Positions 3,461 to 19,097 of a stretch of DNA of 19,097 bases are shown piece after piece; positions within the stretch are counted from its first letter, which is position 1, and every line of letters starts with the position of its first letter. The stretch is taken from contig JAFTKY010000092.1 of the NCBI GenBank assembly GCA_017453005.1, forward strand, positions 1-19,097, given 5' to 3'. A model generated the notes under the pieces. That model did not search any database. It saw only the letters and a list, made by a program, of their open reading frames with translations, and had not been told where the DNA came from. The position numbers were made by a program, and so were the translations under genes. Source of the stretch: Clostridia bacterium. Lineage in GTDB: Bacteria; Bacillota; Clostridia; Oscillospirales; CAG-272.

Positions 3461-4735
3461 ATGAATTACACATTTACGGCAAAAAATACGAAAAACAAAA
3501 TAAACGCGATATCCTCAAAATCCGAGGCGCACAGACTTCTTATCTGTGCCGCTCTCTCGGACGGGGAGACCTGCATTGTTTGTAACGATACAAATCAGGA
3601 TATAGACGCGACCGTCAGCTGTCTCAACGCGCTTGGCGCGTCCATTATCCGCGCAGAGAACGGAGACGGAGAAAAATACTTTAACGTCACACCTATCAGC
3701 GAGATACCCACGCATGCGGCGTTTGACTGCGGCGAGTCGGGCTCTACTCTGCGCTTTCTGTTGCCCGTGGTTGCCGCCCTCGGTATTGAATGCGACATTT
3801 ATATGCACGGGCGTCTTCCCGAGCGTCCCCTCTCTCCTCTTTACGAGCTGCTCACAGAAAACGGAGTGACGCTCTCCCCCCAAGGCTCAAACCCGTTGCA
3901 CGTCAGCGGAAGGCTCAAATCGGGAAATTACGAGATAGCGGGAAATATATCCTCGCAGTTTATAAGCGGTCTTCTCTTTGCTCTGCCCTTTGCGGACGGT
4001 GACAGCACGCTCACCATGACGGGCAAGCTTGAGTCCACCCCGTACATAACCATGACCGAGCAGGCACTTGAGTGCTTTGAAGCTCATATCCGCAACGACG
4101 GTAACGTGTTTTACATTCCAAGGGCGAACAGCTGTGTGGGACTTAACCGTTTTACCACTCCCCACACCGTTTTCGTGGGCGGCGACTGGTCAAACGCGGC
4201 ATTCTTTCTCTGCGCGGGCGCGCTGTCCAAGGGCGGCGTGACCGTGTGCGGGCTTGACGTCACCTCCCCGCAGGGTGACCGCGAGATACTCAACATCTTA
4301 AAGCGCATGGGCGCGGCAATATCCCGCTCCGGCAACTCAATAACGGTCAGCAAGGCAGACCTTTTCGGCATTGAGATAGACGCCTCGCAGATACCCGACC
4401 TCGTTCCCGTCATCTCGGTGGTAGCGTCGGTCGCTATGGGCAAAACCAGAATTTATAACGCCTCCCGTCTCCGCCTCAAGGAGAGCGACAGACTAAGGAG
4501 CGTTTGCGATATGCTCTCGTCCCTCGGCGCGGACATAAAGGAGACCGAGGACGGACTTATCATCCACGGCATAAATAAAAAGCTTACGGGCGGTACCGTC
4601 AGCTCGCACAACGACCACAGAATTGCAATGAGCGCGGCGGTTGCCTCTCTCGTTTGCACGGGTCCCGTAACGGTCGAGGGCATCGAGGCGGTCAATAAGT
4701 CATATCCCTCGTTCATTTCCGATTTTGTAATTTGA
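3461..4735 (+). CDS. aroA: 3-phosphoshikimate 1-carboxyvinyltransferase (EPSP synthase).
   Basis: A 424-aa protein with the EPSPS fold signature, including LFLGNAGTA-like GESGSTLRFL, the RPLSPL region and a C-terminal DHRIAMS motif. Confidence 0.9.
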   Translation: MNYTFTAKNTKNKINAISSKSEAHRLLICAALSDGETCIVCNDTNQDIDATVSCLNALGASIIRAENGDGEKYFNVTPISEIPTHAAFDCGESGSTLRFLLPVVAALGIECDIYMHGRLPERPLSPLYELLTENGVTLSPQGSNPLHVSGRLKSGNYEIAGNISSQFISGLLFALPFADGDSTLTMTGKLESTPYITMTEQALECFEAHIRNDGNVFYIPRANSCVGLNRFTTPHTVFVGGDWSNAAFFLCAGALSKGGVTVCGLDVTSPQGDREILNILKRMGAAISRSGNSITVSKADLFGIEIDASQIPDLVPVISVVASVAMGKTRIYNASRLRLKESDRLRSVCDMLSSLGADIKETEDGLIIHGINKKLTGGTVSSHNDHRIAMSAAVASLVCTGPVTVEGIEAVNKSYPSFISDFVI

Positions 4736-4745
4736 GGTTAAACAA

Positions 4746-5819
4746 ATGACTACCTACGGAAAAAACATAAAGCTTACTATATACGGCGGCTCGCACGACG
4801 AACATATCGGAATGATACTTTCGGGTGTGCCGTCGGGCATAAACATTGATACGGACAAGCTCCTCGCTTTTATGAAGCGCCGCGCCCCCGGGCAGAACGC
4901 GTATTCAACAAAACGCCGCGAGCCCGATATCCCCGTATTTTTGTCGGGTATCGTAGACGGCGTGACAAACGGCGAGGACATTGAGGCTGTCATTTATAAC
5001 ACCAATCACCGCTCGGGCGACTACTCCTCGCTCTGGGATATTCCCCGTCCGTCCCACGCGGACTATACCGCGCGGATAAAGTACGGCGAGGGTGTTGACC
5101 TTCGCGGCGGCGGACATTTCTCGGGCAGGCTTACCGCTCCCATGTGCATCGCGGGCGGCATTTGTCTCCAGATGCTTGAGCAAAAGGGTATTTTCGTCGC
5201 GGCACATATTCACTCTGTTGCAGGTATCAAGGACGCGGAGTTTGACAGCGTAAACGTCTGCCTTGACGATTTCAAGTCACTTGCAAAAAGAGACTTCCCC
5301 ACTATTGACGAGGCGGCAGGTGTCGCCATGCAGGAAGAGATAGAAAGAGCGCGGCTTGACTGCGACTCCGTCGGCGGCGTTATCGAGTGCGCGGCTATCG
5401 GTCTCCCCGTGGGACTTGGCGAGCATATGTTTGACGGCGTTGAGGGCAGAATTTCGGGTATTATGTTCGGTATTCCCGCAGTCAAGGGTGTTGAATTCGG
5501 TCTGGGCTTTGGCTCTGCTGCCCTTCGCGGCTCGCAGAACAACGATTCCTTCTGCACCGACGGCAAAACAATAAAGACAGTCACCAACAACTGCGGCGGA
5601 ATCCTCGGCGGCATGACTGACGGTATGCCTCTTATTTTCCGCGCGGCGTTCAAGCCCACCCCGTCCATTTCAAAAGTACAGCAGAGCGTGTCTCTCTCCC
5701 GAATGGAAAACGTACAGCTTGAAATAGGCGGCAGACACGACCCCTGCGTCGTCCCCCGCGCCGTCCCGGTAGTTGAGGCGGCGTGCGCCATCGCGCTTTG
5801 CGATATGCTTCAAGACTAA
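4746..5819 (+). CDS. aroC: Chorismate synthase.
   Basis: A 357-aa protein with chorismate synthase signatures: GESHG-like YGGSHDEH, the RRAPGQN..S.RRE region and an RHDPCVVPRAVPV C-terminal motif. Confidence 0.92.
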   Translation: MTTYGKNIKLTIYGGSHDEHIGMILSGVPSGINIDTDKLLAFMKRRAPGQNAYSTKRREPDIPVFLSGIVDGVTNGEDIEAVIYNTNHRSGDYSSLWDIPRPSHADYTARIKYGEGVDLRGGGHFSGRLTAPMCIAGGICLQMLEQKGIFVAAHIHSVAGIKDAEFDSVNVCLDDFKSLAKRDFPTIDEAAGVAMQEEIERARLDCDSVGGVIECAAIGLPVGLGEHMFDGVEGRISGIMFGIPAVKGVEFGLGFGSAALRGSQNNDSFCTDGKTIKTVTNNCGGILGGMTDGMPLIFRAAFKPTPSISKVQQSVSLSRMENVQLEIGGRHDPCVVPRAVPVVEAACAIALCDMLQD

Positions 5820-10305: not shown

Positions 10306-11694
10306 ATGAATCCCGCAATTATCTTTTTGATTTGTGCAATCGCGCTGGTGCTTGTATCCTTTATCGCATGGATATGCTCAAGATACAAGAAATGCCCCTC
10401 TGACAAGATCATGGTCATCTACGGTTCGATAGGTAAGAACAACGACGGCACGAACAGAAGCGCAAAGTGTATTCACGGTGGCGCTGAATTCGTTATTCCC
10501 GTTTTCCAGTCGTACGCTTATCTCGACCTGACGCCCATATCTATCTCGGTCGACCTCAAGAACGCGCTCACACGTCAGAACATTCGTATCGACGTTCCCT
10601 CTCGCTTTACCGTTGGTATCTCCACGGAGACGGGCGTTATGCAGAACGCGGCTGAAAGACTTCTCGGTCTCCAGATGACCGAGGTACAGGAGCTTGCAAG
10701 AGATATTATCTTCGGTCAGCTCCGTCTTATCATCGCGACCATGGATATTGAAGAAATAAATACTGACCGCGACAAGTTCCTCGCGGCTGTAAGCTCTAAC
10801 GTTGAAACAGAGCTTAAAAAGATAGGTCTTCGTCTTATCAACGCGAACGTAACGGATATCACCGACGAGTCGGGATACATAGCGGCTCTCGGTAAGGAAG
10901 CTGCTGCAAAGGCTATCAACGACGCAAAGAGGAGCGTTGCCGAGCAGGAGCGCGACGGTTCTATCGGTGAAGCAAACGCGCAGATGGACCAGAGAATCAA
11001 GGTTGCAGAGGCAAACTCCGTAGCTATTCAGGGTGAAAACGAAGCAAAGATGAAGATCGCTATGTCCGACGCCGCGCTCAAGGAGAAAGAGGCAGAGGCA
11101 AAGAAGATCGCAACCACCGCAGAAAAGATCCAGGCTGCAAAGGCACTCGAAGAGTCCTACGCTGCAGAGCAGGCAGCCGAGCTTGCAAGACGCTCCAAGG
11201 AGCAGGCAACCCTCGAGGCTGACATTATCGTTCGCGCAGAGGCAAAGAAAAAGGAAATGGAGCTTGCTGCTGAGGCAGAGGCTGAACAGATGCGTAGACG
11301 CGCACAGGGTGAGGCTGACGCTATTTACGCGAAGATGCAGGCAGAGGCTCGCGGTGTCGAGGAGATACTCAAAAAGCAGGCTGCAGGTCTTGCTGAGGTC
11401 GTTAAGTCCGCAGGCGGCGATCCCGATTCCGCTCTCCGTCTCCTTATAGCTGATAAGCTCGAGGACCTCATGAGAGTTCAGGTCGACGCTATAAAGAACA
11501 TCAAGATAGACAAGGTCACTGTATGGGACGGCGGACAGACCGCAAACGGAAAGACGTCTACCGCAAACTTCATCTCGGGTATGATGAAGTCCGTTCCCCC
11601 TCTTGATGAGGTGTTCACAATGGCAGGTATGCAGCTCCCCGCAATTCTAGGTAAGAAGACCGAGGACGCAGTTGAAACGACCTCCGAGGAATAA
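10306..11694 (+). CDS. floT: Flotillin-like SPFH/band-7 protein (FloT/YuaG type).
   Basis: N-terminal TM, an SPFH domain, then a long Ala/Glu/Lys-rich coiled-coil (EA-repeat region) typical of flotillins. GGAGG precedes ATG 10306. Confidence 0.85.
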   Translation: MNPAIIFLICAIALVLVSFIAWICSRYKKCPSDKIMVIYGSIGKNNDGTNRSAKCIHGGAEFVIPVFQSYAYLDLTPISISVDLKNALTRQNIRIDVPSRFTVGISTETGVMQNAAERLLGLQMTEVQELARDIIFGQLRLIIATMDIEEINTDRDKFLAAVSSNVETELKKIGLRLINANVTDITDESGYIAALGKEAAAKAINDAKRSVAEQERDGSIGEANAQMDQRIKVAEANSVAIQGENEAKMKIAMSDAALKEKEAEAKKIATTAEKIQAAKALEESYAAEQAAELARRSKEQATLEADIIVRAEAKKKEMELAAEAEAEQMRRRAQGEADAIYAKMQAEARGVEEILKKQAAGLAEVVKSAGGDPDSALRLLIADKLEDLMRVQVDAIKNIKIDKVTVWDGGQTANGKTSTANFISGMMKSVPPLDEVFTMAGMQLPAILGKKTEDAVETTSEE

Positions 11695-11718
11695 TTGAAA
11701 ATTGCCGAATAAATCAAA

Positions 11719-11755
11719 CGGGCAGTCGCGGCGTTGCCGCGACTGCCCGTATTGT
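11719..11755 (+). terminator. Intrinsic terminator-like hairpin after floT.
   Basis: CGGGCAGTCGCGGC-gtt-GCCGCGACTGCCCG, a 14-bp perfect stem followed by TATTGT. The U-tract is weak. Confidence 0.55.
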
Positions 11756-11890
11756 AACCACGTTAGCCTTCTCCGGCGGAGTTGCACAGACTACAGGAGA
11801 GTACCATCACCGAACATAAGAATGTTGAACAATTACCCGTATTCTACCAATAAATCACTTTTGAATTGAAAGATATCATTCATAAGTTGC

Positions 11891-11919
11891 TTGAATTAAA
11901 TTGTACCGTATGCTATAAT
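11891..11919 (+). promoter_or_regulatory. Sigma-A promoter of the XRE-family regulator gene.
   Basis: TTGAAT at 11891-11896, a 17-nt spacer, then TATAAT at 11914-11919 preceded by TGc. GGGAG ribosome-binding site precedes ATG 11950. This places the true start at 11950, not 11866. Confidence 0.55.
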
Positions 11920-11949
11920 GTAAGCAAACAACCAAACAGGGAGAACAAA

Positions 11950-13482
11950 ATGAAAATTCAGATCGCAGATAACATAAAAAGATTTCGCATAGCAAGCGGA
12001 TATACTCAAAGTGATCTTGCAGTACTTTTGTCTGTTTCTCCTCAAGCGGTGAGCAGATGGGAAAACGGACAGGCTTTTCCTGATATAACCTTTTTACCTT
12101 TGCTTGCGAAATATTTGAAGGTGTCCATTGATGAGTTGATGGGAATAAAAGGGCAGCAAAACGAAAGTTTAAAAAAAGAGCTGCGCGAACGCAGACAAGC
12201 AGTCATAGACGATGATTCCGAAAAGCTTCAAAATGAGCTTCGTATTCTTGAAATATACGAAGAGTTAGGACATGCAGAGCTTTTTTATTTGATCGACTAT
12301 TTTAAGCAGCTGATGCTTGTGAAAAACAACGCAGTGGTAAAGATCAAAGATTTGGAAGATCGAATTGCCAATGCTCGGCAAATGATCCGGGATCGCTTGA
12401 GAACATCCGGTATGTGCGACAGAATATGGTTGCTAAATACGGTAGCCTCTTGTGAGGAGGAAGACAAATTGGCGATCTGGGCAGATGAATATGAGTTCCC
12501 CGAATATATGAGAACAAACTTTTGGGACAAATTGCTACTGTCAAGATATGACAAGGAAAAAAACACCTACAAACTAAATGCACAAAATCAAAAAATTTTA
12601 TATGAGCATATCCAAAATACCATTTATTATCTAACCGATAGTGTGTCTGGTGATATGAAGGAGCAGATGAATGACTTTCATGATCCGGAAAGATACAAAA
12701 TGGCGCTTGATACACTTGATCTGTACTCAACACGGGCAGACGATATCTTTTTGACCACGCGCATTATCGCTGAGGTGAGATACGCAGAGGCACTTTTGAT
12801 CAACGGATGTACTGAGGAAAGTCTTGCTATGTTCTCACAGGCAGGCAAACATCTTTTGCTACTGTATCATTTGCCTGATGGCAGTGTGCTTCACGGTTCT
12901 GTTCCTGTATTGAGTACGGTACACATCGCAATTGATTATTCGAAGGATAAGCTTGAAAAATGCGTGTTCAACCTGAATACATATGATAAAAATCCACAGT
13001 TTGACCAAATTCGCGAGGATAAAAGATTTGTGGCGTATATGGAATCAAGGGCAAAATTTCTTCCACATAATTGCAAAAGCTGGGTGGATGAGATTGGAAA
13101 TGATATGGTTGATACGCGGTGGAAAATGCTTCTGAATAGAGCAAAGAAAGAGACAGAGACACTTTCTGACGGCAATGTCGTGGTGATGCTGACCATCAAT
13201 GGCGCGGTTGACGCCATCTCGTTTCAGAATCTCAATTCCGTCATTGAGGCGGAGGGTGCGATGAAGTTTTTGATTGAGAAAAAGAAAAATGGTGATGCCA
13301 GAATCGAACGTTTGATTTGTATGTGGCACGATGGCAGTATTGATCTTCCCTCATTTGCTTTCAGAGAAGCACTTTTGTCTGTTGAAAACGCAAATGTTTC
13401 GACTCAAATGCTTTTAAACGGGATAAAGGGGTATGTTGTTAAGACAGTAAAAGCAACAATGCCTAAAGGATACAAAACATAA
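11950..13482 (+). CDS. XRE-family (Cro/cI-type HTH) transcriptional regulator with a roughly 440-aa helical C-terminal domain (RNPP/TPR-like architecture).
   Basis: N-terminal IKRFRIASGYTQSDLAVLLSVSPQAVSRWENGQAFPDITFLPLLAKYLKVSIDEL is a canonical HTH_XRE. The rest is uncharacterised. The gene is clearly more AT-rich than its neighbours. Confidence 0.7.
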   Translation: MKIQIADNIKRFRIASGYTQSDLAVLLSVSPQAVSRWENGQAFPDITFLPLLAKYLKVSIDELMGIKGQQNESLKKELRERRQAVIDDDSEKLQNELRILEIYEELGHAELFYLIDYFKQLMLVKNNAVVKIKDLEDRIANARQMIRDRLRTSGMCDRIWLLNTVASCEEEDKLAIWADEYEFPEYMRTNFWDKLLLSRYDKEKNTYKLNAQNQKILYEHIQNTIYYLTDSVSGDMKEQMNDFHDPERYKMALDTLDLYSTRADDIFLTTRIIAEVRYAEALLINGCTEESLAMFSQAGKHLLLLYHLPDGSVLHGSVPVLSTVHIAIDYSKDKLEKCVFNLNTYDKNPQFDQIREDKRFVAYMESRAKFLPHNCKSWVDEIGNDMVDTRWKMLLNRAKKETETLSDGNVVVMLTINGAVDAISFQNLNSVIEAEGAMKFLIEKKKNGDARIERLICMWHDGSIDLPSFAFREALLSVENANVSTQMLLNGIKGYVVKTVKATMPKGYKT

Positions 13483-18673: not shown

Positions 18674-18702
18674 TTGACAAACCCGCCTCACTGTTGTATA
18701 AT
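18674..18702 (+). promoter_or_regulatory. Perfect consensus sigma-A promoter of tRNA-Ser.
   Basis: TTGACA at 18674-18679, a 17-nt spacer, then TATAAT at 18697-18702. It lies 44 nt upstream of the tRNA 5' end. Confidence 0.65.
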
Positions 18703-18745: not shown

Positions 18746-18836
18746 TGGAGATGTACTCAAGAGGCCGAAGAGGCGCCCCTGCTAAGGGTGTAGGTCGGGT
18801 TACCGGCGCGAGAGTTCAAATCTCTCCATCTCCGCC
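18746..18836 (+). tRNA. tRNA-Ser (anticodon GCU), class II with a long variable arm.
   Basis: Acceptor GGAGATG pairs with CATCTCC. U8; D-arm CTC/AAGAGGCCGAA/GAG; anticodon stem CGCCC/GGGTG with loop CTGCTAA (anticodon GCT at 18780-18782); a 19-nt variable arm; T-arm GAGAG/TTCAAAT/CTCTC; discriminator G plus encoded CCA. It closely parallels bacterial tRNA-Ser(GCU). Confidence 0.85.
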
Positions 18837-18844
18837 AACAAAAA

Positions 18845-18876
18845 AGGAACTTTTGTCTACCAAAAGTTCCTTTTTT
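18845..18876 (+). terminator. Intrinsic terminator of tRNA-Ser.
   Basis: GGAACTTTTG-tctac-CAAAAGTTCC, a 10-bp perfect stem, followed by TTTTTTG. Confidence 0.8.
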
Positions 18877-18883
18877 GTTTATC

Positions 18884-19097
18884 CAAGCCGCAGGCTTTGC
18901 ATATCATCGCCGCGCGAAGCGTGGTGTATATCATCAAGGGCGGCTCGCCGCCCTTGTATCTCATCACGCGCCAGCGTGCATCTTACCTGCGCCTTGATGA
19001 TATACAATGCTTCGCATTGATGATATACCGCAACAAGTTGCGGATGATATACACGCCTTCGGCGTGATTGGGATGCGAGGATGCGAAAATCTCTTGA
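18884..19097. repeat. Array of seven unique GC-rich perfect hairpins punctuated by the 9-mer TATATCATC and its reverse complement GATGATATA. The array runs to the window edge.
   Basis: The seven hairpins are: AAGCC-gca-GGCTT (18884-18896); CCGCGC-gaa-GCGTGG (18909-18923); CAAGGGCGG-ctcg-CCGCCCTTG (18934-18955); CACGC-gcca-GCGTG (18964-18977); CAATGC-ttc-GCATTG (19004-19018); CCGCAAC-aa-GTTGCGG (19027-19042); CACGCC-ttc-GGCGTG (19051-19065). The 9-mer copies are cATATCATC 18899-18907, TATATCATC 18926-18934, TATcTCATC 18956-18964, then GATGATATA at 18995-19003, 19018-19026 and 19042-19050. Confidence 0.6.

Follow-up and report, generated by a model that had tools for sequence, protein, structure and literature searches.

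Hairpin arrays with short constant linkers in a cassette family inserted behind tRNA genes of gut Clostridia

Results

Features of the locus

The DNA analysed here, hereafter the window, is a stretch of 19,097 nucleotides from a Clostridia bacterium. Toward its right end it carries a tRNA-Ser(GCT) gene, a terminator, and an array of seven GC hairpins with 8-mer linkers, which read TATATCAT on the left and ATGATATA on the right (reading of the sequence and a repeat finder). The continuation of the locus was found on L001, an ENA ruminant-gut metagenome contig on which the last open reading frame (ORF) of the window, DUF8091, is sequence-identical; an L001 coordinate is the window coordinate minus 7802, and window position 19097 maps to L001 11285. 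The features are listed below, with '>' and '<' standing for the two linker orientations.

18674..18702, plus strand: promoter of tRNA-Ser, TTGACA-17-TATAAT (L001 10872-10900, 12/12 match, offset 7802)
18747..18837, plus strand: tRNA-Ser(GCT), the gene ahead of the cassette (ARAGORN; Rfam tRNA)
18836..18845, plus strand: CAACAAAAAA, left copy of a 10-bp direct repeat flanking a 905-bp insertion (L185-L001 alignment)
18837..18879, no strand: bidirectional terminator brought by the cassette, perfect arms of 19 bp (AACAAAAAAGGAACTTTTG / CAAAAGTTCCTTTTTTGTT) around the loop TCTAC (repeat finder; hairpin type seen behind other tRNAs)
18846..19097, plus strand: in-window part of the inserted cassette, which continues about 650 bp beyond the edge
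18883..18899, plus strand: founder hairpin H0, CCAAGCCgcaGGCTTtG (CCAAGCC-GCA-GGCTTtG), constant first unit of the family (75 instances of T-run-AT-CC..GG-[T/C]ATATCA)
18900..18986, plus strand: '>' half, linkers CATATCAT, TATATCAT, TATCTCAT and CATCTTAC with hairpins H1-H3
18908-18926: hairpin H1, '>' half
18935-18956: hairpin H2, '>' half
18965-18978: hairpin H3, '>' half
18987..18996, plus strand: centre CTGCGCCTTG, 10 nt, complementary to the 5' arm and loop of H0, with one mismatch in the window
18997..19074, minus strand: '<' half, three exact ATGATATA linkers with hairpins H4-H6 and the terminal degenerate linker ATTGGGAT
19005-19019: hairpin H4, '<' half
19028-19043: hairpin H5, '<' half
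19052-19066: hairpin H6, '<' half
19094..19097, plus strand: TTGA, first four bases of the -35 element of the PF05635 promoter (L001 11282-11310)

Read from left to right, the array consists of H0, CATATCAT, H1, TATATCAT, H2, TATCTCAT, H3, CATCTTAC and the centre CTGCGCCTTG, followed by ATGATATA, H4, ATGATATA, H5, ATGATATA, H6 and ATTGGGAT. The fourth left linker, CATCTTAC at 18979-86, is degenerate and is part of the design, and the repeat finder gives a regular unit spacing of about 23 bp. The window holds 14 matches to the motif at no more than one mismatch, versus 3.9 expected, a count equalled by none of 200 shuffles; six of the 14 are packed in 152 bp. Folding of the whole array beats that of shuffled sequences as well (z of about -5, as DNA or as RNA). 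The array is a real, non-random feature.

An initial annotation of the window had described seven hairpins and a conserved 9-mer that switches to its reverse complement midway, and had judged the array to be neither coding, nor a CRISPR, nor random. Indeed, the hairpins map as H0-H6 at 18883-19066, the reverse complement occupies the right side, with the switch at 18979-18996, and the judgement on the nature of the sequence holds. The 9-mer is exact in the three right copies; on the left it is exact only at 18927 (TATATCATC), the copies at 18900 (CATATCATC) and 18957 (TATCTCATC) having one mismatch each. The true constant unit is the 8-mer TATATCAT / ATGATATA, the adjoining C and G being stem bases. 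Nor is the array truncated by the window edge, as had been thought: it ends at 19074, at ATTGGGAT, and what the edge cuts is the -35 hexamer of a promoter and with it a partner gene. The annotation had also considered that a downstream coding region might explain the motifs; the ORFs over the array are hairpin read-through, and gene callers extend ORFs across it.

An insertion at the 3' end of tRNA genes

In three sister lineages (L185-7, L189 and L192, within L185-L192), in which DUF8091 is 77-79% identical, the tRNA-Ser gene is followed directly by a terminator, without the array. By blastn, L001 carries an insertion of 905 bp at 11044-11948 (window 18846 onward), between the CCA/A-run and the ancestral terminator, so that the first terminator (18837-79) came with the cassette. 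L185 matches L001 over 10853-11043 and over 11949-12186, with 10 bp in common, and CAACAAAAAA flanks the insertion on both sides: its left copy is made of the last CA of tRNA-Ser and the A-run of the terminator, and its right copy lies at L001 11949, outside the window. The same type of terminator hairpin, …CTTTTGTCTACCAAAAG…, is found in other species behind tRNAs for Ser, Arg, Val, Leu, Gly and Glu and behind tmRNA, and at L005, L008, L014, L024, L050, L051, L102, L103, L105, L123 and other loci.

An identical 117-aa PF05635 protein accompanied by a second gene of the same length (101 aa) occurs in at least seven different contexts, and the identical 117-aa PF05635 cassette sits directly behind tRNA-Ala(GGC), tRNA-Gln(TTG), tRNA-Trp and a tRNA-Ser remnant. 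The element is thus an insertion relative to sister species, and it is mobile, identical cassettes sitting behind different tRNAs. Among the matches listed, a tRNA or tmRNA gene ends 51-220 nt before the array in 59 of 141 cases, with 16 tRNA specificities represented in addition to tmRNA, and none of the 141 arrays lies upstream of a tRNA or tmRNA within 400 nt. It is the '>' half that is proximal to the tRNA. Of 79 assessable canonical left ends, 44 are behind an intact tRNA or tmRNA, 22 follow a CCA and A-run without a called tRNA (several with visible tRNA 3' remnants), and nine follow an A-run terminator only. The tRNA targets have only the CCA and the A-run in common.

An integration site next to the tRNA gene was among the ideas of the initial annotation, and it was right in spirit, the array being within a 905-bp insertion at the exact tRNA 3' end. 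In its explicit form, this idea would have the 8-11-mers act as attP-like arm sites of a tyrosine integrase working in trans on a CIME-like cassette, an explanation that we consider improbable. It would suit the location at tRNA 3' ends, the 10-bp direct repeat at the junctions and the conservation of both cassette ends, as well as the att-like duplications of tRNA 3' fragments seen at neighbouring loci and the different insertion found at the same tRNA in L002. However, one and the same cassette is found after at least four tRNAs, and the targets of the family comprise at least 16 tRNA types and tmRNA with only CCA and A-run in common, which is unlike an integrase; there is no integrase in or beside the cassettes, the duplication extends only to CA and the A-run, and arm sites leave hairpin spacers with covarying stems unexplained. 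It is conceivable, if unlikely, that we are dealing with a new class of bacterial mobile elements that target the CCA end of essentially any tRNA or tmRNA by a structure- or RNA-based rule, with PF05635 as trans and the array as cis machinery; the tRNA 3' end, or the CCA/A-run/terminator junction, would then be the primer or landing site. We know of no described bacterial counterpart to a cassette placed precisely behind the CCA of any tRNA without a recognisable recombinase.

The cassette beyond the window edge

The initial annotation had advised looking for a binding-protein gene, among others, just past the window, and a PF05635 gene is found 57 nt after the array in L001. There, the array is followed by a promoter, TTGAAT-17-TGnTATAAT (L001 11282-11310), whose first four bases are the last four of the window, then by an RBS, the 115-aa PF05635 gene (start at 11332), a 66-aa membrane ORF and a terminator, with right-end repeats also in the cassette. 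The full order of a cassette is an A-run/hairpin/T-run terminator, H0, about three '>' units, a centre complementary to H0, about three inverted '<' units, a sigma-70 promoter, an Avd/IVS-like PF05635 gene, a variable small second gene and the right-end direct repeats. The latter are two repeats of about 20 nt, GTACTTTTAGTCGTTCTTACC … GCACCTTTTAGTCGCTCTTTCGCA; beyond them come ACAAAAAA and a further terminator, which often belongs to an older element. The cassette ends are:

left end: ACAAAAAGAGAACTTTTG…
right end: …CTTTCGCA

The subfamily of L001 has an equivalent right end, which is common to L024 and L066, with other cargo, and to L118. In L118, array and promoter are joined straight to the right end, as in a MITE-like internal-deletion derivative. 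The right-end motif taken from L001 is specific to this subfamily (four loci), and an initial guess at a right-end motif matched two loci.

The DNA common to cassettes ends at the PF05635 stop codon, and the second gene varies, encoding membrane peptides, a lipoprotein, an AAA_23/AAA_15 ATPase or DUF2695. Cargo genes received no PADLOC assignment and gave no significant match in a PADLOC/Pfam follow-up search, and no recombinase, transposase or reverse transcriptase (RT) was seen in the cassette. Solo arrays, which have the consensus sequence and no cargo, also occur.

Distribution and grammar of the array family

When one genome per GTDB species was scanned for GATGATATAC-N8-30-GATGATATAC, at least 120 loci were returned. 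Among the matches listed, the hosts are nearly all uncultured Clostridia, represented by metagenome-assembled genomes (MAGs) from the guts of ruminants and other animals under the labels Oscillospiraceae, Acutalibacteraceae or 'Eubacteriales', and the few matches in other phyla amount to a chance-level count. The family is essentially absent from viral contigs, in which one of 61 motif matches had a family-like GC-rich hairpin spacer and five of 61 had any palindromic spacer. A scan of metagenome contigs with a tRNA end and terminator added one locus, L123.

All 231 units in these loci are extragenic. The 231 spacers between adjacent 8-mers represent 151 distinct stems among the matches listed, and a perfect end-anchored stem of at least 4 bp is present in 190 of them, versus 11 after shuffling. 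Spacer lengths range from 10 to 22 nt with a peak at 14-16 nt, and 132 spacers begin with CA and end with TG. Mixed arrays are mostly convergent, '>' then '<' (46, versus seven divergent). A left-end pattern written as a regular expression (A-run, terminator hairpin, T-run, AT, H0, [T/C]ATATCAT) retrieved 75 composites, typically laid out as terminator, founder hairpin, about three '>' units, centre and about three '<' units; the commonest composite has 3 + 3 linkers (27/75). Arrays with a single orientation exist as well (L044, L073 and L087). Linker variants of the superfamily include AATGATG, GAAATC and TATGTAAT.

H0 is of several types, and in each of them the centre is the exact complement of the H0 5' arm and loop. 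The H0/centre pairs are CAAGCCGCAG / CTGCGGCTTG (GCA/TGC), ...GACAG / CTGTC... (GACA/TGTC), CATTGCGAAA / TTTCGCAATG, and CAAGTCGCAG / CTGCGACTTG, so that the complementarity between H0 and centre covaries across the family. Either a pairing or a copying mechanism may account for this match.

Further explanations to be weighed are a CRISPR-like array, replication iterons or a partition site, chance and assembly artefact. What could be said for them is the regular spacing of about 23 bp. Against this, the constant part is 8 nt long, the 'spacers' are palindromic hairpins of 10-22 nt, no cas, rep or par genes are present in the 120 loci among the matches listed, the surroundings are chromosomal, and hundreds of assemblies yielded the array independently. 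Repeat size, palindromic spacers, gene absence and recurrence effectively refute these explanations, including the iterons that the initial annotation had proposed, and we give them next to no credence.

Stem pairing and strand specificity

In 57 distinct 15-nt units, 97.7% of the cells are paired, versus 70.8% in column shuffles (0/500 shuffles match) and 28-42% in a control with slid partners. The first pair and the loop-closing pair, both C-G, are fixed; in the three middle positions, every one of the four Watson-Crick pairs occurs. This shows selection for stem pairing with free stem sequence. The conserved parts are the linker, the stem base C-A...T-G, the loop-closing C-G and the GNA or GNNA loops. 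Read on the TATATCAT strand, the loop sequences comprise GAA (39), GCA (22), GTCA, GCAA, GTA, GTAA, GTTA and GACA. They follow the patterns c-GNA-g and c-GNNA-g, without a bias towards purines at position three, and we take them to be the classic very stable DNA mini-hairpin motifs, not RNA GNRA loops.

Wobble pairs reveal a strand bias in the near-perfect stems. Read on the TATATCAT strand, they contain 29 G·T versus 5 A·C; read by half on the tRNA-sense strand, the counts are 13 G·T versus 2 A·C in the '>' half and 1 G·T versus 6 A·C in the '<' half. We infer that the minus strand is the functional strand of the '<' half. That the optimised strands of the two halves are opposite speaks against an RNA over the whole array as well as against a symmetric cruciform. 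Folded to minimum free energy, either strand gives a 'ladder' built by pairing of left-half with right-half linkers, but the same opposition of the halves speaks against a single-strand ladder being what selection maintains.

These results weigh on another idea of the initial annotation, that of a structured RNA across the array. In such a scheme, read-through from the tRNA gene would fold into the ladder, as a non-coding RNA or RNA-processing platform, and be cut as RNase III does with the 23S intervening sequence (IVS), for which a precedent exists (PMC4990558). The ladders given by the minimum-free-energy folds, their z of about -5, the 3 + 3 layout of the commonest composite and a variant, L057, with a plain long inverted repeat upstream of the PF05635 gene would all agree with it. 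On one strand, however, the '<' hairpins have A·C mismatches and UNC loops, the loop and wobble signatures of the halves being on opposite strands; moreover, one-orientation arrays exist, a strong terminator precedes the array, and Rfam gave no match over the array at the gathering threshold (19 loci) or at E up to 10. We therefore hold this explanation to be very improbable.

Variability between strains

The initial annotation had advised a look at related strains. Between the window and L001, there are three differences over about 11.1 kb upstream of the array and 32 within 18898-18992, in one half of the array: two hairpins are exchanged for other hairpin-forming sequences, the linkers are altered too, and the right half is identical. 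The '>' half is thus hypervariable between near-identical strains, and the '<' half, identical in L001, is largely kept in other cassettes. L123 and ten further loci (L193-L202) provide more alleles of the '>' half, each with a largely conserved '<' half. Since varied '>' alleles are joined to a conserved '<' half, the tRNA-proximal half reassorts as a module, for which gene conversion among the many paralogous copies would suffice. In L087, L096, L044 and L073, arrays have grown by two-unit blocks duplicated in tandem.

The PF05635 gene

The 115-aa protein belongs to PF05635 (23S_rRNA_IVP; 68 bits versus a Pfam cut-off of 33.8), and its nearest structure is PDB 2RLD (E = 1.5e-16), an entry with five chains. 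PF05635 proteins of the cassettes are basic, with a pI of 8.7-9.2. The link between gene and array was recovered by tblastn with the 115-aa protein, which found homologues 76-96% identical straight after arrays in 11 more loci, behind various tRNAs, and distant homologues of 42-61% identity in seven further loci. PF05635 is the only recurrent first gene after arrays, and no other recurrent gene was found within 3.5 kb of arrays in the loci (at least 120); in roughly half of the composites the array has no ORF behind it and no PF05635 gene beside it. In 40 of 50 composites, transcription of the right-hand gene points away from the array, and RNA polymerase therefore seldom runs into the '<' half.

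The PF05635 family comprises 3454 clusters at E <= 1e-5. The best 120 of the 3454 all reach 81% identity to the query or more, with nearly all at 90% or above, and lie mostly on contigs of 0.5-2 kb, a multi-copy signature; the array repeats break up rumen and gut metagenome assemblies. Divergent PF05635 genes located after tRNAs have other repeats, TATGTAAT in L094 and, in L057, hairpin-less inverted arrays of ATTCATT. Such a link between repeat motif and protein subfamily could be mere co-inheritance, because array and gene are physically linked, and for this reason their co-variation was not used as evidence for binding.

Discussion

Relation to known elements

The initial annotation had put forward four ideas, of which a BIME-like mosaic is the closest in form. 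As with REP, BIME and REPIN elements of proteobacteria (PMC3733652, PMC3116915), we find a large, lineage-wide family of many extragenic palindromic units (at least 120 loci, 231 units), clustered in mosaics with linkers, in both orientations, with tandem expansion and variation between strains; a function of the folded single strand is presumed in both cases. The arrays differ in that the stem is free and the 8-nt linker constant, whereas REPs conserve the palindrome. Neither of the two marks of a known REP/BIME family was found when searched for: there is no GTAG/CGTC tag, the units being flanked by TATATCAT, and no conserved palindrome, with 151 distinct stems in 231 units. Unlike in BIMEs, orientation switches once per array instead of alternating, a founder hairpin is present with a matching centre, the tie to tRNA 3' ends is strong, and the associated gene is PF05635, no RAYT having been seen in the neighbourhood of the arrays; among the matches listed, PF05635 was the only recurrent gene within 3.5 kb.

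The likeness to BIMEs raises the question of a passive role. Hairpins of a BIME- or REPIN-like element would halt or pause polymerase, protect RNA 3' ends or absorb supercoils, and insulate the very strongly transcribed tRNA gene from its neighbours, with PF05635 as a frequent passenger. We regard this as possible, though doubtful, and as the chief rival of the role favoured below. It would fit arrays that are extragenic and directly behind terminators, whose hairpins are short, GC-rich and of stable loop types, which keep their consensus in solo copies without cargo, and which grow by two-unit duplication. In L001, H3 with CATTTTTC scores terminator-like, and in L044 and L040 the one-directional arrays between co-directional genes are antisense to the genes, where the sense orientation would terminate. 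Tandem terminators are nonetheless a poor description: the tail is UAUAUCAU, only H3 is flagged in L001 besides the true terminators, and a strong canonical terminator already stands before the array. The linkers are not U-tracts and are nearly invariant, as are the stem base and the loop-closing pair, which suggests recognition over thermodynamics. Furthermore, the '<' half usually has no incoming transcription (40 versus 10), L010 has an array in sense orientation within a 5' UTR, flanked by a T-box and the gene of that T-box, and the strand-specific wobble pattern is at odds with a symmetric cruciform.

Targets of diversity-generating retroelements (DGRs) require a GC-rich DNA hairpin with free stem sequence and a strand-specific GRNA loop (PMC3240598), and Avd is a relative of PF05635 (PMC10053308). 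The arrays share with this target hairpin a GC stem whose structure matters and whose sequence is free, a strand-specific G..A loop and an Avd/PF05635 partner, here at 68 bits versus 33.8 and with 2RLD at E = 1.5e-16. The DGR hairpin is single, with 7-10 bp and a 4-nt GRNA loop 3' of the variable repeat, whereas the arrayed stems here have 5-8 bp and mostly GNA triloops or GNNA loops. The arrays have no recurrent large ORF beside them, and no RT, TR/VR pair or target gene was seen there.

Insertions in 23S genes with an S23p/PF05635 ORF, in Coxiella and Leptospira (PMC4990558), resemble the cassette as small selfish horizontal insertions in a stable-RNA gene with self-complementary non-coding DNA. 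However, the 23S IVS resides in helix 25 or 45, its ends pair around the ORF, and it is cut by RNase III, whereas the cassette lies after the tRNA CCA, has its own terminator and promoter, keeps the array upstream of the ORF, and its outer end repeats are direct. MITEs and cis-mobilisable tRNA cassettes likewise have conserved ends and variable cargo, deletion derivatives such as L118, solo copies and tandem accretion behind a tRNA. Unlike them, the element has outer repeats that are direct rather than inverted, no clear target-site duplication past CA and the A-run, any tRNA as target, and no transposase or integrase.

The array family is of the kind of extragenic palindromic mosaics and miniature cassettes, but is set apart by its insertion at CCA ends and its dedicated Avd/IVS gene. 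The cassette family is apparently undescribed: in a literature search of incomplete coverage, the motif returned only unrelated primers, and no matching report was found for hairpin repeats 3' of tRNA genes.

A candidate role for the array

We tentatively favour the view that the array is a strand-specific folded cis-module of a mobile cassette, read by a protein, probably the Avd-like PF05635 protein. The array units would fold into single-stranded hairpin and linker sites read by a sequence- and structure-specific protein, the recognition unit being a hairpin with fixed base, closing pair and loop together with an 8-nt tail; the opposed halves would offer the same site on whichever strand is exposed. 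The reader would most likely be the cassette's own basic Avd-like PF05635 protein, whose relative 2RLD has five chains; Avd is a pentamer. The complex may serve the element in promoter control, in insulation from the tRNA gene, or possibly in propagation, and solo arrays may be non-autonomous or decayed copies.

A protein reader is suggested because the invariant parts of the array are those that a protein would read, the stem interior being free, and, by analogy, because the Avd family works in DGRs with a target hairpin of the same logic. Where PF05635 is missing next to the array, as in about half of the composites, the protein could act only in trans. To our knowledge, the only understood member of PF05635 is the DGR cofactor, and Avd is a candidate for recognising the DGR hairpin; we know of no sequence-specific binding or catalytic activity in the family, and of no nucleic-acid ligand for its thousands of stand-alone copies.

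Conclusions

The cassettes pair one PF05635 clade with a strand-specific hairpin/linker repeat, and provide a testable candidate ligand. If the cassettes were indeed elements that target tRNA ends by a structure- or RNA-based rule, which we consider unlikely, the 30-year-old 'IVS protein' family would be a signature of selfish elements specialised on stable-RNA genes, residing in 23S helices in some lineages and at tRNA ends in this one.

The tRNA-Ser 3' end as an insertion site

In another sample of the same species, a contig (L002, 1930-2035, corresponding to window 18826-18837 and beyond) departs from the window exactly 3' of the tRNA-Ser discriminator base, and in its tRNA-Ser two pairs of the acceptor stem are disrupted by an AT-to-TA swap. 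The position of the divergence, together with the swap, points to a different insertion or an att variant at the same tRNA-Ser. Elsewhere, fragments of the tRNA-Ser 3' end, 17-20 nt long including CCA, recur 150-240 bp 3' of the intact tRNA in three loci:

L096, 820-1050
L022, about 4960-4700, reverse complement
L023, 6225-6500

These repeated fragments constitute att-like duplications. The hairpin array of L022 is placed behind the tRNA-Ser remnant and not behind the intact gene.

Beyond the window, on the ruminant-gut metagenome contig that continues it (L001), two further ORFs lie 3' of the cassette:

L001 12171-15705, minus strand, 1043 aa and 159 aa long

Their features include an HExxH-like motif, a second motif resembling that of ADP-ribosyltransferases, and a large duplication within the ORFs. 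The region has the look of an island distinct from the cassette, placed behind the tRNA that both share.

Variants of the PF05635 gene

Many database PF05635 proteins (P0121-P0127 and similar, 152-161 aa) have an N-terminus 37-46 aa longer than that of the 115-aa gene product (L001 11332-11679); the start codon was probably called too far upstream, the ORF running into the promoter and array. Behind a tRNA-Gly, L057 (3850-4085) carries a 47% identical PF05635 gene preceded by an inverted ATTCATT / AATGAAT repeat array without hairpins; the array amounts to a long, imperfect palindrome rich in AT.

Context, growth and diversity of the arrays

One locus (L010, 4326-4673) has a three-unit, sense-oriented array that follows a T-box leader and precedes the start of the leader's 825-aa gene; given this position, the units are unlikely to act as strong terminators. 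In L003, an array at 4740-4962 lies approximately 110 nt 3' of a Gut-1 RNA (Rfam RF01706, 53.9 bits).

Four loci carry long arrays, the longest with 11 or more units:

L087, 1-390
L096, 2083-2285
L044, 830-1030
L073, 611-760

All are composed of alternating two-unit blocks, which indicates growth through tandem duplication.

Further hairpin arrays use different linkers, namely AATGATG/CATCATT, GAAATC and TATGTAAT/ATTACATA:

L194, L196, L198 and L199, 3' of the cassette's right-end terminator
L197, L200 and L202
L094, about 3660-4013, minus strand

Since the same grammar, including the orientation switch, is kept despite these other linkers, the comparison suggests that hairpin-plus-linker arrays form a superfamily.
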